DNA of 64,000 nucleotides, taken from the NCBI GenBank assembly GCA_041658985.1, contig JBAZZC010000003.1, forward strand, positions 10,540-74,539, in the 5' to 3' direction. Shown in pieces: positions 43,242-48,604 of the stretch. The stretch is from Minisyncoccota bacterium (GTDB taxonomy: Bacteria > Patescibacteriota > Minisyncoccia > Phycocordibacterales > DATDWN01). Each line of letters begins with the position of its first letter. The stretch's first letter is position 1. A model generated the notes under the pieces. The model saw nothing but the letters and a program-made list of their open reading frames with translations, was not told the DNA's origin and did not search any database. Both the position numbers and the translations under genes were made by a program.

Positions 43242-44960
43242 ATGAAGGAAATCTTAGAAGAAGAGCTTAAAACGATATTGCGAAATATTGGGATACAGAA
43301 TCCTACGATTACTTTTGATGTGCCTATTCACGTTGAACTGGGGGACTATTCTACAAATGTAGCTATGGCTTATGCAAAACAACTTGGGACAAAACCGGTT
43401 GATTTAGCAGAAGAAATAAAGAAAAAACTCACAGAGAAGAGTATAGAGAATATTTTTAAAATAAATGTTATTGCCCCCGGGTTTTTAAACTTCTTTTTTA
43501 ATGAGAATTATTTTGGCGGTGTTGTGAAAGAGATAATTTTAAAAAAAAATAAATATGGAGAGAGCGACTCTCTTCTAGGGCAAAAAATAATGGTTGAGTT
43601 TACTGACCCGAACCCATTTAAAGAATTTCACATTGGACATTTAATGAGTAACAGCATAGGTGAATCAATTTCTCGAATTTTAGAATCACAAGGGGCCAAG
43701 GTTTTTCGAGCCAACTGGCAAGGGGATGTTGGAGTCCATATTGCTAAGGCGGTGTGGGGCATGTTCCATTCACCACTTTCAAATGATGACAAATCGTCTA
43801 TAGAAAAATCTGTCATCTATCTTGGGAGGTGTTACGCACTTGGTGCTTCACAGTATGAAGAAGATGAAAAGGTAAAAAAGGAAATACAAGAAATAAATAA
43901 TAAGATTTATGAAAAAAGTGACTTAGAGATTAATGAGAAGTATGAATGGGGAAGAAAAGTCAGTTTAGACTATTTTGAAATAATCTACAAAAAACTTGGA
44001 ACAAAATTCGATTACTATTTCTTTGAAAGCAAAGAGGGGGTCCTTGGTAAAAAAATAGTAGAAGAATATTTAGAAAAAGGTATTTTTGAAAAAAGCGACG
44101 GGGCAGTTGTTTTTAAGGGTGAAAAATATGGCTTACACACAAGGGTTTTTATCAATTCAAATGATATACCAACATATGAAGCCAAAGAGTTAGGCCTGAA
44201 CCGAGAGAAATTTATTGTTGAACCAAAGCTTGATCAGTCAGTCATAATTACCGGAAATGAGATAAATGAGTATTTTAAGGTTTTACTGCAGGTTATTTCT
44301 CTGATATTTCCGGAGGTTGGTCAAAAAACAAAACACATTTCTCATGGGATGCTCCGATTACCCGAGGGCAAAATGTCTTCACGAACCGGCAATGTTATTA
44401 CAGCCGAATCACTAATATTAGAAGTTCAACAGAAGACTCTTGAAAAAATGAAAGACAGGAGAATGAGTGAAAAAACACAACAAGAAATTTCTGAGACCAT
44501 AGCTATTGGTGCCCTGAAATATTCCATCCTAAAACAAACGACTGGAAAGGACATAATTTTTGATTTTGATAAGTCGGTTTCATTTGAAGGGGATTCTGGT
44601 CCATATTTACAATATGCAACTGTGCGGGCAAATTCTATTCTAAAAAAATCCGCCTCTTCGGCGGACCAGCCGATGAGGCTGGGCGAAATACCAGAAAATT
44701 GGAAGACCACAAATTTAGAGAGAATTCTTGAGAGATTTCCGTCTGTGATGGAGAGGGCGGGGACAGAGTATGCGCCAAGTCACATTGCCACCTACCTTAT
44801 TGAACTGTCAGGAGAATTCAATTCGTTTTATGCTTCCCACAAAATAATTAATGAGACCGACCCAACATCTTCCTATCGATTAGCCTTAACTCAAGCTTTT
44901 GTTTATATAATGACTTCAGGACTTAATCTTCTGGCGATCAAAATTCCGGAACAAATGTAG
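43242..44960 (+). CDS. argS: Arginine--tRNA ligase
   Basis: HIGH motif in FTDPNPFKEFHIGH, a KMSSR-type motif, and a DALR anticodon-binding domain. Confidence 0.9.
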   Translation: MKEILEEELKTILRNIGIQNPTITFDVPIHVELGDYSTNVAMAYAKQLGTKPVDLAEEIKKKLTEKSIENIFKINVIAPGFLNFFFNENYFGGVVKEIILKKNKYGESDSLLGQKIMVEFTDPNPFKEFHIGHLMSNSIGESISRILESQGAKVFRANWQGDVGVHIAKAVWGMFHSPLSNDDKSSIEKSVIYLGRCYALGASQYEEDEKVKKEIQEINNKIYEKSDLEINEKYEWGRKVSLDYFEIIYKKLGTKFDYYFFESKEGVLGKKIVEEYLEKGIFEKSDGAVVFKGEKYGLHTRVFINSNDIPTYEAKELGLNREKFIVEPKLDQSVIITGNEINEYFKVLLQVISLIFPEVGQKTKHISHGMLRLPEGKMSSRTGNVITAESLILEVQQKTLEKMKDRRMSEKTQQEISETIAIGALKYSILKQTTGKDIIFDFDKSVSFEGDSGPYLQYATVRANSILKKSASSADQPMRLGEIPENWKTTNLERILERFPSVMERAGTEYAPSHIATYLIELSGEFNSFYASHKIINETDPTSSYRLALTQAFVYIMTSGLNLLAIKIPEQM

Positions 44961-44999
44961 TTATTTACAAAAGTATATATTTTAGTTAATATTTAAGTA

Positions 45000-45178
45000 T
45001 AAGCAGTAAAGAGACCAATCACCTCTATGGCTTTGGGAAGAAAGCAGAAATGCAAATAGAACCCAACGGGTGGCCCGTTATAGCCGTAAAGAGAAGTAAG
45101 CAAGGTGGTACCACGAGAAACTCGTCCTTGCATAGCAAGTGTTTGCTGTGTAGGGACGGGTTTTTTATTACAAAAAAT
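45000..45178 (+). promoter_or_regulatory. T-box riboswitch leader with an AUC (Ile) specifier upstream of ileS
   Basis: T-box sequence AAGGTGGTACCACGAG (45102-45117). A 16-bp terminator stem plus GGTTTTTT follows at 45122-45168. The specifier loop ACCAATCAC carries AUC followed by a purine, in the AGAG/CTCT stem at 45010-45030. Confidence 0.55.
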
Positions 45179-48100
45179 ATGGAAAAAGAAAAAATAGAAA
45201 AAAGTGAAGTTGCACTGAAAGAAGAAAAAATCCTGGAGTTTTGGGAGAAAAGTGAAATTTTCAAAAAAACCCTAGAAAAAGAGGCACCAAAAGGGGAGTT
45301 TGTCTTTTACGATGGGCCTCCATTTGCCACTGGTTTGCCTCATCAGGGGACATTGCTTGGTTCCATTGCTAAGGACCTAATTCCTCGCTACAAAACGATG
45401 CGAGGCTACAGTGTGCGTCGTAGATGGGGTTGGGATTGTCACGGTTTACCTATAGAAAATCTTGTAGAGAAGAAACTTGGCCTCAAGCATAAAAAAGATA
45501 TTGAAGAAATGGGTATAGAAAAATTTAACGAAGAATGTCGCAGTCAAGTGTTGACATATGTTCATGATTGGAAAGTGTACATTGACCGCGTGGCTCGTTG
45601 GGTTGATTTTGAGGGCTCTTACAAAACCATGGATTCTAGTTATACCGAAAGTATTTGGTGGGCACTCAAACAAATGAATGACAAAGGCTTGCTTTACGAA
45701 GGCAGAAAAGTTCTTTTGTATTGTCCAAGATGCGAGACTCCTCTTTCTAAAGCAGAGATTGCTATGGACAACTCATATAAAGATATAACGGAAGAGGCGG
45801 TGACAATAAAGTTTAAAATAAAAAATCCAGAAAAACATAAATTACCCCAGAACACATATTTACTTGCATGGACAACAACCCCGTGGACATTACCTGGAAA
45901 CGTTGCACTTGCAGTTGGTAATGATATTGAATATCAAGTAATGAAAAAGGGGCAAGAAACCTATGTTGTTTCTACACAGGTATGGAAACAGGGAATCTTG
46001 GGAGAGTTTGGCAACCTAGCAATAGGAGATGTTCGTAAGGGGGCTGATTTGGTTGGTTTGGAATACGAACCACTTTACGAAATACCTGTTGTAAAAAATA
46101 GTGGCAAAAAAGCTTGGTATGTTACCTCGGCTGATTTTGTTAATACAGAAGAGGGAACGGGTATTGTGCATACGGCGGTAATTTATGGAGAGGATGACTA
46201 TCAACTTGGTCTAAAAGTTGATTTACCAATGGTTCCACTGCTTTTGCCAAATGGAGAGTTTAATAATGAGGCTCCGGAATTTATTCGTGGAATGTATGTG
46301 AAAAAGGCCGAGAGATATATAAAAGAAGATTTGGAAAAAAGAGACTTGCTTTTCAGTAAGACCATGAACACTCACTCATACCCTCATTGTTATCGTTGCG
46401 AAACCCCCCTTATATACAACGCTCTCTCAAGCTGGTTTATTAATATTCAAAAAATAAAAAAACAAGTTATTGATTTGAATGAAAATATAAACTGGGTTCC
46501 GGACCATCTTAAACATGGACGTTTTCTAGATATTGCTCAAAATGCTCCGGACTGGACAATAAGCAGAAATCGCTATTGGGCATCGCCACTGCCAATCTGG
46601 AAAGATGACAAGGGTAAATATATTGTTATTGGAAGTATTTCTGAACTTAAGGATTACATTGGTCGTCGCAATAATTATTTTCTCTTACGTCATGGAGAAT
46701 CGGAAGGAAATGCAAAGGGTGTTATAAGTTGTAAGAAAGATGGTAAAGACTCACTGACTTCTCTTGGTAGAGAAGAATCTCTCTCTTCTGTAAAAGAACT
46801 CAAAAATAAAAAAATAGACATTATTATTTCATCGCCTTTTGTAAGGACACGTGAAACTGCCGAAATTATTGCCGAAGAGATGGGGATTCCAAAAGAGGAA
46901 ATTATCTATGATGATTTGCTTGGTGAGATTTCTTGTGAAAAGTACGATGGGGAATTGTGGACAGGTTTTAATTTCAGGAAAAAAGAAGAAGGGGTTGAAA
47001 CTCCACGCCAGGTTCTCTCGCGAACAATGAAAGTTATGTATGGATTAGATAAAAAATATGAAAGCAAAAACATTTTAATTATTGGACACGGGGGACCACT
47101 TAGAATAATCAAACTTGCGTCAAGTGGTTTAGCAGAGGAAGATATCATGAAGCATTATTATGATGACCCACCAAGAAACGCAAAAACGATTGACTGTGAT
47201 TTTGTGGCATTGCCTCACAATGGGGCATATGAAATTGATTTACACAGGCCATACATTGATGAGGTTGTGCTACATGACAAAGACGGTTCTATTCTCAAGC
47301 GAATACCAGAGGTTATTGACTGTTGGGTTGAATCTGGGTCAATGCCTTTTGCCGAATATAATTATCCGTATTCAAATAAAGAAGAATTTGAGAAAAGAGC
47401 TCCAGGAGATTTTGTGGCTGAGTATATAGCCCAAACCAGAACTTGGTTTTACTACATGCATGTCATCTCTACGGCTCTTTTTGGACGGGAATCTTTTAAA
47501 AATGTTTTGACTACCGGAAATATTCAAGCCAGTGACGGAAGTAAAATGAGTAAGTCAAAGAGTAACTACACAGACCCATTGCTTCTCATGAATAAATACG
47601 GTGCTGACGCTCTGCGTTACTACATGATGACTTCTGTTGTGATGCAGGCAGAGGATTTAAACTTTAAAAATGATGATGTCAAAGAAGTTAACCAAAGAAT
47701 GTTAAATATCTTGCGAAATGTTTTATCTTTCTATGAAATGTATAAGACGGATTTTACTGGAATCCCAAGCAAAAATAATGTTTTGGATAAATGGATTTGT
47801 TCTAGGTTGGCAGTTTTGCACAAAGAAGTAACTGAGGGTCTGGAGAAGTATGACACAATCCGTTCTGGGCGGCCGATAAGACTTTTTATAGAAGATTTAT
47901 CAACTTGGTATTTGCGTCGCTCAAGAGACAGATTCAAATCAGAAAACTTAGAGGAGAGAAAAGAGGTCTCAGAATGTACCGCTTTTATTTTGGTAGAACT
48001 TGCAAAAATAATGGCTCCGTTTACGCCATATATTGCCGAGGAAATTTATCAGGGTGTTAAAGGAAAAAATCATAAAGAAAGTGTACATTTAGAAAATTGG

Positions 48101-48604
48101 ACAGAAAGCATGGAGGATTTTTTAGACAGGGAACTTATTGTTCAAATGCAAAAAGTCAGGGAGGTGGTTACCCAAGCCTTAGATTTACGTCAGAAAGCTG
48201 GGTACAGTGTTAGACAACCTCTGCCATCTCTTGTTGTGTCGCAAAATTTTTCTAAAGAACTATTAGATATTATTGCTGATGAGGTCAATGTAAAAGAAAT
48301 AAAGGTCTTGGAAGGAAGTGAGGTAAGATTGGACACAACCTTAACCGAAGAATTGAAAAACGAAGGAATTGCTCGTAGTGTTATTCGTGGTATCCAGGAT
48401 GTAAGAAAAAATGAAGGTCTTAATCCAGGCGAGAGAATAAAGCTGATTATTTGTGCAGATGAAAAAATAAAATCTGTGATTGTTTCTTTTGAGATTTTAA
48501 TCAAATCTCCAACACAGGTGGTGGAGATAATATACTCAAACGAAAAACAAACTCACGCCATTTCTTTGGGTTCCGGCGAGATGACGGTAACAGTATCTAG
48601 ATAA
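45179..48604 (+). CDS. ileS: Isoleucine--tRNA ligase with an inserted histidine-phosphatase (PGAM-like) domain
   Basis: PHQGT (a HIGH variant), WTTTPWTLPGN, and KMSKS. An internal segment of ~190 aa carries the LLRHGESEGN and IIGHGGPL catalytic motifs of the histidine phosphatase superfamily. Start moved to MEKEKIEK, downstream of the T-box. Confidence 0.85.
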   Translation: MEKEKIEKSEVALKEEKILEFWEKSEIFKKTLEKEAPKGEFVFYDGPPFATGLPHQGTLLGSIAKDLIPRYKTMRGYSVRRRWGWDCHGLPIENLVEKKLGLKHKKDIEEMGIEKFNEECRSQVLTYVHDWKVYIDRVARWVDFEGSYKTMDSSYTESIWWALKQMNDKGLLYEGRKVLLYCPRCETPLSKAEIAMDNSYKDITEEAVTIKFKIKNPEKHKLPQNTYLLAWTTTPWTLPGNVALAVGNDIEYQVMKKGQETYVVSTQVWKQGILGEFGNLAIGDVRKGADLVGLEYEPLYEIPVVKNSGKKAWYVTSADFVNTEEGTGIVHTAVIYGEDDYQLGLKVDLPMVPLLLPNGEFNNEAPEFIRGMYVKKAERYIKEDLEKRDLLFSKTMNTHSYPHCYRCETPLIYNALSSWFINIQKIKKQVIDLNENINWVPDHLKHGRFLDIAQNAPDWTISRNRYWASPLPIWKDDKGKYIVIGSISELKDYIGRRNNYFLLRHGESEGNAKGVISCKKDGKDSLTSLGREESLSSVKELKNKKIDIIISSPFVRTRETAEIIAEEMGIPKEEIIYDDLLGEISCEKYDGELWTGFNFRKKEEGVETPRQVLSRTMKVMYGLDKKYESKNILIIGHGGPLRIIKLASSGLAEEDIMKHYYDDPPRNAKTIDCDFVALPHNGAYEIDLHRPYIDEVVLHDKDGSILKRIPEVIDCWVESGSMPFAEYNYPYSNKEEFEKRAPGDFVAEYIAQTRTWFYYMHVISTALFGRESFKNVLTTGNIQASDGSKMSKSKSNYTDPLLLMNKYGADALRYYMMTSVVMQAEDLNFKNDDVKEVNQRMLNILRNVLSFYEMYKTDFTGIPSKNNVLDKWICSRLAVLHKEVTEGLEKYDTIRSGRPIRLFIEDLSTWYLRRSRDRFKSENLEERKEVSECTAFILVELAKIMAPFTPYIAEEIYQGVKGKNHKESVHLENWTESMEDFLDRELIVQMQKVREVVTQALDLRQKAGYSVRQPLPSLVVSQNFSKELLDIIADEVNVKEIKVLEGSEVRLDTTLTEELKNEGIARSVIRGIQDVRKNEGLNPGERIKLIICADEKIKSVIVSFEILIKSPTQVVEIIYSNEKQTHAISLGSGEMTVTVSR

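Follow-up and report, generated by a model that had tools for sequence, protein, structure and literature searches.

The ileS gene of the window, the 64,000-nt stretch of DNA from a Minisyncoccota bacterium that was analysed in this study, is preceded by a leader that very probably acts as a tRNA-Ile-responsive T-box and controls ileS by transcription attenuation on a minimal chassis. In its features, this leader is a chimera: an ultrashort decoding module of the actinobacterial type is combined with an intrinsic terminator, Stem III is missing, and the host genome is that of a CPR bacterium. A T-box with an AUC specifier upstream of ileS had been proposed in a sequence-only reading of this DNA and was supported here by a conserved core, by covariation across 49 homologs, and by a specifier codon that tracks the downstream gene.

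Locus and anatomy of the ileS leader

The whole leader is held by a gap of 218 nt between argS (43242-44960, with its stop codon at 44958-60) and ileS (ATG at 45179). It extends from 45002 to 45166 on the + strand, which also carries the predicted promoter and ileS, and ends 12 nt upstream of the ATG. At ~165 nt, compared to 219 positions for the Rfam model, it was as compact as the sequence-only reading had stated, and the absence of room for a T-box at argS, glyQS, and metG, also noted there, was reflected in upstream gaps of 29, 43, and 39 nt, respectively. A promoter (TTTACA-17 nt-TAATAT, 44964..44992) was predicted by a consensus scan only; from it, the transcript start would be near 45000. 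In relatives, -10-like boxes, often TGnTATACT, were found 20-30 nt 5' of Stem I.

The regulated gene (45179..48604) encodes an isoleucyl-tRNA synthetase of 1141 amino acids (TIGR00392, 816 bits). Its closest relatives in GTDB genomes carried the labels Candidatus Paceibacterota, Zambryskiibacteriota, Kaiserbacteria, and Patescibacteria and showed at most 74% identity; the G+C content of the window was 32-42%. Between its two catalytic halves, IleS carries an insertion (window 46661-47158, amino acids ~495-660) that resembles a histidine-phosphatase/phosphoglycerate-mutase domain (matches to dPGM_arch, 1.1e-17, and ribazole_cobC, 2e-13). This insertion is common to more than 30 related CPR IleS loci at 27-40% identity (tblastn), including L001, L072, L109, L123, and L161. 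We know of no description of an aminoacyl-tRNA synthetase fused to a histidine-phosphatase-like domain.

A default Rfam scan of the window at gathering thresholds reported no T-box, because the score of the leader (47.3 bits) is below the gathering score of RF00230 (93). In a permissive scan, RF00230 matched positions 44951-45132 with these 47.3 bits, about half the gathering score, at E-values of 1.8e-9 (401-nt scan) and 2.9e-7 (whole window, both strands, all 4227 families). The Rfam check that had been suggested for this leader consequently gave a mixed outcome, significant by E-value and below the gathering score. The half-strength match is explained by distal Stem I and Stem III positions that are nearly unaligned, with 40 distal Stem I model positions represented by 5 nt and 17 Stem III positions by 2 nt. 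Neither RF00230 nor the covariance model R1 (see below) detected a second T-box in the window.

The leader starts with the AGC strand (45002-04) of a 3-bp C-stem, followed by a 3-nt bulge (AGU, 45005-07) and by AA (45008-09), at the place where relatives have a K-turn GA. An ultrashort Stem I of 4 bp (AGAG/CUCU, 45010-13 / 45023-26; overall 45010..45026), assigned from covariation and from the tracking of codon and gene, closes the apical Specifier Loop ACCAAUCAC (45014-45022). Within this loop, AUC occupies 45018-20 and the conserved purine A position 45021, in agreement with the specifier loop that had been read from the sequence. An AUG linker and the 3' strand of the C-stem (GCU, 45030-32), the latter supported by a permutation test, complete this part of the leader (45027..45032). 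The K-turn base of Stem I retains the C-stem and the 3-nt bulge, but it is degenerate in that AA/AUG replaces the GA/GA of most relatives, so that tandem G.A pairs are missing. A distal Stem I platform, consisting of an AG bulge and a distal loop with interdigitated T-loops, was absent; Stem I has only 4 bp and presents the codon apically. According to the sequence-only reading, lack of a significant Rfam hit, or of a Stem I K-turn and distal loop, was to count against a T-box. Such a test would reject the leader wrongly, as the missing distal loop, the degenerate K-turn, and the sub-threshold Rfam score mark a variant class and do not disprove T-box identity.

Stem II (45033..45066), assigned from covariation and RNAalifold, consists of a lower helix (UUGGG 45033-37 / CCCAA 45062-66, 98% paired), S-turn strands AAGAAA (45038-43) and AAUAGAA (45055-61), and an apical GCA-GAAA-UGC (45044-53). 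The S-turn motifs AAGAAA and AGUAGA are conserved in the class. The GNRA tetraloop tip GCA-GAAA-UGC is absent from the nearest T-box relatives of the window (L072, L109, L123, and L161). In the Stem IIA and IIB region (45067..45085), the IIA hairpin (CGG 45067-69 / CCG 45075-77) was placed with high posterior probability in the Rfam alignment, and a IIB pseudoknot is predicted between GGC (45072-74) and GCC (45083-85), strands that can pair in the window and whose third pair covaries among homologs.

A Stem III hairpin was sought between pseudoknot and antiterminator, where the 27-nt linker contained no foldable hairpin (0.0 kcal/mol). In the discriminator linker GAG-AAGU-AA (45091..45099), the purines that flank Stem III elsewhere are kept, while the hairpin is reduced to 4 nt. 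These GAG...AA purines have been described as contacts to the tRNA 3' end (2020 review PMC7583486; 2025 single-molecule study). Among the matches listed, 23 short-linker leaders had the form RNGAG-AAGY-AA-NN-A1, with linkers that do not fold, and relatives with a linker of 35-45 nt had the form RNGAG-(N)-[14-22 nt hairpin]-AA-NN-A1. The nearest genomic relative of the window, L001, has the same terminator design but a Stem III of 32 nt. Because the same design occurs with and without this element, the Stem III hairpin is evolutionarily labile within one clade, with retention of the flanking purines.

The antiterminator (45100..45131; constrained fold -10.6 kcal/mol) is formed by helix A1 (GCAAGG 45100-05 / CCUUGC 45126-31, 6 bp), helix A2 (ACGAG 45113-17 / CUCGU 45121-25, 5 bp) and, between them, the 7-nt T-box bulge UGGUACC (45106-12). 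The canonical T-box sequence AAGGTGGTACCACGAG was present at 45102-45117, as had been reported for this leader. The A2 pair that adjoins the bulge (45113/45125) is A-U in the clade of the window and G-C in other class members; the window keeps the U. Neither is the conserved G.U wobble at this place, which structural work regards as the principal element for sensing the aminoacyl group sterically (PMC7583486).

A predicted intrinsic terminator (45118..45166; -28.5 kcal/mol) comprises 18 core pairs (45121-38 / 45143-60) extended by AAA/UUU, a GUGU loop, and a U-run (U6, 45161-66) 3' of the hairpin (45118-63); a promoter/terminator scan counted 20 pairs in this hairpin. The overlap of terminator and T-box in antiterminator fashion, which had been proposed, was thereby confirmed; the proposed length of 16 bp was too short, in view of 18 core and three A-U pairs. 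Positions 45121-31 are common to the antiterminator, as 3' strands of A2 and A1, and to the 5' arm of the terminator, which makes the two folds mutually exclusive. This is the alternative pairing that the suggested folding check was meant to reveal, and both folding energies are in line with the TBDB averages for antiterminators (-7.4) and terminators (-19.5). The leader as a whole folded with z = -5.4 relative to dinucleotide shuffles.

RNAalifold also paired AUCACC of the specifier loop (45018-45023) with GGUGGU (45104-45109, the end of A1 and UGGU) through 6 pairs. This self-pairing of specifier and T-box was not adopted, as it showed zero covariation. It may have arisen by chance from the two motifs, both of which are conserved, or may correspond to a self-paired state adopted without tRNA.

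Homologous leaders and their specifier codons

The basis of covariance model R1, which scored the window leader at 100 bits, was a set of 12 compact leaders and an investigator-specified structure. When R1 was applied to 42 related ileS loci, leaders were found in only 5-6 of these (the window, L028, L001, L032, L034, and the contig-truncated L031), from which it follows that the leader is sporadic even among close relatives. A scan of 39 related ileS loci with a T-box regular expression gave few matches, and the match in L016 was rejected because it was inside a coding region and not in a leader. In L034, a full leader with a 100-nt insertion in Stem II (2160-2340) is followed, 40 nt downstream, by a second, partial antiterminator-like match (2383-2410); this arrangement may represent a partial tandem T-box.

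At least 120 loci were retrieved from metagenomes with a pattern in which only TAGA, the IIA hairpin, and TGGNACC were fixed. The resulting homolog set is biased by this pattern, and the counts given here apply among the matches listed. High-GC loci had a gap of 42-51 nt, no U-run, and an IleS ~42% identical to that of the window; they represent the translational type known from Actinobacteria. Low-GC loci with a gap of 25-30 nt numbered 23, including the window, L028, and L032, and most had U-runs. Low-GC loci with a gap of 35-48 nt had U-runs too. In 17 of the 23 leaders without Stem III, a hairpin and U-run were found whose 5' arm overlaps the antiterminator. RF00230 scored 11 class members at 38-67 bits or left them undetected. 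Placement of metagenome loci from local IleS similarity was ambiguous, and several MAG labels were evidently automatic; the claim of CPR membership is therefore restricted to the window, to its labelled relatives, and to four loci with the IleS insertion.

In the R1 alignment of 49 low-GC leaders (among the matches listed), 93.1% of cells were paired, compared to 38-50% when partners were slid by 1-3 columns, the pairing being inflated by the fit to R1. Twenty of the 23 pairs had changed on both sides, and the covariation score was 0.684, against 0.178 after shuffling, with none of 500 shuffles reaching the observed value. Covarying pairs included all of those in Stem I (5/5), Stem II (5/5), A1 (6/6), and A2 (4/4). 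With an unfitted MAFFT seed, RNAalifold independently recovered Stem II, IIA, and A2; the invariance of IIA is uninformative because the search pattern fixed it. Outside this pattern, the S-turn AAGAAA was conserved in 35-49 of the 49 sequences, depending on the position (45-49 for each of the first five).

For the third IIB pair, for which no selection had been made either, G:C was found in 57 of 62 and A:U in 18 of 37 cases; overall, 83 of 116 were paired, against 56 expected, a value reached by none of 5000 shuffles. Because the 5' sides of both Stem I and the C-stem are misregistered in MAFFT columns, the C-stem was evaluated by a per-sequence permutation test. A 3-bp C-stem was found in 31 of 43 leaders, compared to 19.6 expected (0 of 2000 permutations), in the compensatory forms AGC/GCU, AAC/GUU, UGC/GCA, UCC/GGA, GAC/GUC, GGC/GCC, and ACC/GGU. 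Most members combine the C-stem and a 3-nt bulge with GA...GA, which is the signature of a K-turn.

The specifier codon changed with the downstream gene; of the functional arguments for regarding the tiny hairpin as a real Stem I, this one is the strongest. Nearly all leaders upstream of ileS presented YNAUCA in the apical loop. GUC specifiers, with a UGGU bulge, preceded genes for ValS (L144 and L079) or genes with weak IleS-like matches (L126, L056, L044, and L157). GAC specifiers with a UGGC bulge preceded genes for a non-discriminating AspRS (L094 and L073, both scanned; homologs of this ORF were also present in L125 and L091). The UGGC bulge is the one expected for G73 of tRNA-Asp. A further GAC (Asp) specifier, with a UGGU bulge, was found in L121 (8938-9111), where the downstream gene encodes a PEP carboxylase of archaeal type (TIGR02751, 493 bits). 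The leader is ultrashort and lacks Stem III, and the enzyme is anaplerotic and supplies the aspartate family.

The U of the bulge in the window fits the usual bacterial tRNA-Ile(GAU) with A73. No tRNA-Ile gene was found in the window or on related loci, and the match of anticodon and discriminator base to the window leader was assumed from this general bacterial tRNA. Some leaders with AUC had a UGGA or UGGC bulge (L028:2845-2959, L031:1-36, L032:2791-2920, L104:1103-1203, L152:291-415, and L055:1572-1723) and were located upstream of ileS wherever the downstream gene was on the contig; these would imply either that U73 or G73 is present in the tRNA-Ile or that a mismatch is tolerated. A leader without Stem III and with an apparent GUC-A loop (L122:6323-6452) preceded an adenosine-deaminase-like gene (TIGR01430, 184 bits, below cut-off), which does not encode an aminoacyl-tRNA synthetase.

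Proposed mechanism and alternative explanations

The elements described above suggest the following course of events, in which association with tRNA, sensing of its charge, the position of the transcription start, and termination in the cell are inferred from the sequence. Transcription probably starts near 45000. In the nascent leader, a short helix would form at the base, together with a Stem I of 4 bp that presents AUC-A apically. Stem II, with its S-turn, and the IIA/B pseudoknot would complete an anticodon-decoding module known from crystal structures of actinobacterial ileS T-boxes, in which the anticodon GAU of tRNA-Ile would pair with AUC. With uncharged tRNA, the 3' ACCA would pair with UGGU (45106-09) and stabilise the weak antiterminator, resulting in read-through into ileS. 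With charged tRNA, or without tRNA, the stronger terminator (45118-63) would form, and transcription would stop in the U-run (45161-66). Sensing would proceed without a Stem I elbow platform or a Stem III hairpin, with the flanking GAG and AA purines remaining. Since Stem III is held indispensable and the elbow platform necessary for transcriptional T-boxes (PMC7583486), the window copy might be a weak binder of tRNA. The lack of tandem G.A pairs in its K-turn and the A-U pair of A2 next to the bulge, in place of the canonical G.U wobble, also count against this mechanism.

An alternative read-out at the level of translation, in which the 3' hairpin blocks access of the ribosome to the start codon, instead of or besides termination, was considered unlikely. 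A decoding module of the actinobacterial translational type would fit such an action, the hairpin ends 12-15 nt before the ATG and could hinder 30S binding, and one member of the class, L139, lacks a terminator and carries GAGGAG upstream of the start codon. However, the hairpin, with ~21 bp and a following U6, has the textbook form of an intrinsic terminator, and the high-GC translational leaders among the matches listed do not have U-runs. Moreover, when an anti-sequestrator versus Shine-Dalgarno (SD) sequestrator switch was looked for in the window leader, the terminator and U-run were found instead, with no SD sequence in the hairpin or near the start codon; the upstream region of ileS contained no SD-like motif. 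GGAG, GAGG, or AGGA motifs occurred within 22 nt upstream of only 1 of 37 window ORFs, and the host genome therefore appears to start translation essentially without SD pairing. With nothing to sequester, an SD-sequestering switch can be ruled out for this host, in which read-out by a terminator would be a natural alternative.

Loss of Stem III and of the G.A pairs of the K-turn could also have disabled tRNA sensing and left a decaying or non-functional remnant. The literature holds Stem III to be required (PMC7583486), the K-turn of the window copy is degenerate, and the leader is confined to few of the related ileS loci. This explanation is nevertheless very improbable, as a dead switch with a terminator of -28.5 kcal/mol in front of an essential, single-copy aminoacyl-tRNA synthetase gene would be strongly deleterious. 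In addition, the layout without Stem III recurs in 23 divergent leaders among the matches listed, every testable helix shows compensatory changes, and the GAG...AA purines are conserved.

The Rfam global alignment, which puts 'Stem I' at 44951-45010, would suggest a full-length T-box of canonical type that diverges in sequence only, with K-turn, internal Specifier Loop, AG bulge, and distal loop on a long Stem I and with a Stem III hairpin. This reading is extremely improbable and refuted by the sequence. The segment in question is the end of argS and an AT-rich, promoter-like region; between the argS stop codon and the hairpin there are just 49 nt, too few to accommodate a long Stem I; few of the model positions for Stem III and the distal part of Stem I are aligned; the linker cannot fold; and in homologs the apical loop that carries the codon sits on a covarying stem of 4-6 bp.

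Relation to known T-boxes and implications

The ultrashort (US) class of ileS T-boxes was reportedly described by Sherwood et al. in 2015. From the 5' end to the pseudoknot, US ileS T-boxes of Actinobacteria (M. smegmatis, M. tuberculosis, and N. farcinica) have the same layout as the window leader. Both share a 3-bp C-stem, a 3-nt bulge, a Stem I of 4-5 bp with a YYAUCA apical loop, a Stem II with AAGAA/AGUAGA S-turn strands, a IIA hairpin (CGGGU..GCCCG), IIB, a GAG linker, a UGGUACC bulge, and ileS as the regulated gene; in the US class (GA) flanks Stem I, whereas the window has AA/AUG at these K-turn positions. Among the matches listed, 74 high-GC leaders matched R1 at 26-63 bits, with a 5' half of the form GGC-GUC-GA-[UCCGG CCAUCA CCGGG]-GA-GCC-[Stem II]-AAGAAC. 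Because these leaders match R1 with the same 5' half, the decoding module of the window is, as judged by sequence comparison, homologous to that of the US ileS T-boxes whose structures were solved with tRNA (PDB 6UFG, 6UFH, and 6UFM; cited in PMC7583486 and PMC12990946).

The window leader differs from the US class in its read-out by an intrinsic terminator and U-run instead of an SD sequestrator, in the lack of the Stem III that in the US class is stacked on the anti-sequestrator, and in its host, a low-GC CPR bacterium and not an actinobacterium. The US class has been described as translational and restricted to ileS (10.1101/2023.02.28.530422), whereas leaders of the window type also carry GUC and GAC specifiers. 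A shorter Stem I has been presented as a feature of translation-regulating T-boxes (10.1101/2024.02.02.578613), Stem III has been held indispensable, and the Stem I elbow platform necessary for transcriptional T-boxes (PMC7583486). In TBDB, the ultrashort model was searched in Actinobacteria only.

With canonical transcriptional T-boxes (RF00230; B. subtilis tyrS and glyQS), the window leader shares a specifier followed by a purine, Stem II and IIA/B, a UGGNACC bulge of 7 nt that separates A1 from A2, reuse of the 3' half of the antiterminator as 5' arm of the terminator, and a downstream aminoacyl-tRNA synthetase gene. In contrast to these T-boxes, it has no internal Specifier Loop, AG bulge, distal interdigitated T-loop platform, or Stem III. 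Reduced T-boxes of the glyQS type resemble it in being transcriptional and in having lost whole domains; they retain a long Stem I and Stem III and have lost Stem II and IIA/B (PMC7583486 and general background). The window leader is complementary to this type, having kept Stem II and IIA/B and lost distal Stem I and Stem III.

Full-text literature searches for T-boxes in combination with CPR or Patescibacteria returned nothing. The literature, mainly reviews and later papers, places minimal decoding of this kind only in translational actinobacterial ileS leaders; an earlier mention of ultrashort leaders with a terminator may exist. On balance, the sequences lean towards a recurrent, undescribed class of minimal T-boxes that act on transcription, are ~150-165 nt long, and occur in CPR bacteria and in further uncultured bacteria of low GC content. 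Members of this class would join the ultrashort-Stem-I, 'translational' decoding module to an intrinsic terminator, often without Stem III, would have taken on at least Val and Asp as further specificities, with a PEP carboxylase gene among those regulated, and would be invisible to annotation at Rfam thresholds.

In current models of T-boxes, a short Stem I goes along with translational control that is slow and reversible, the elbow platform is considered necessary for fast co-transcriptional capture of tRNA, and Stem III is treated as integral to the discriminator that senses charge. If the proposed class functions, co-transcriptional sensing of tRNA charge would require no tRNA-elbow platform and no Stem III hairpin, and the generalisations on both elements would not be universal. 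The leader would then represent the smallest known complete T-box, available for mechanistic and engineering work, and threshold-based Rfam annotation and an actinobacteria-restricted model, as in TBDB, would systematically miss the class. T-box regulation would also extend to CPR bacteria, with their reduced genomes and almost no SD motifs.
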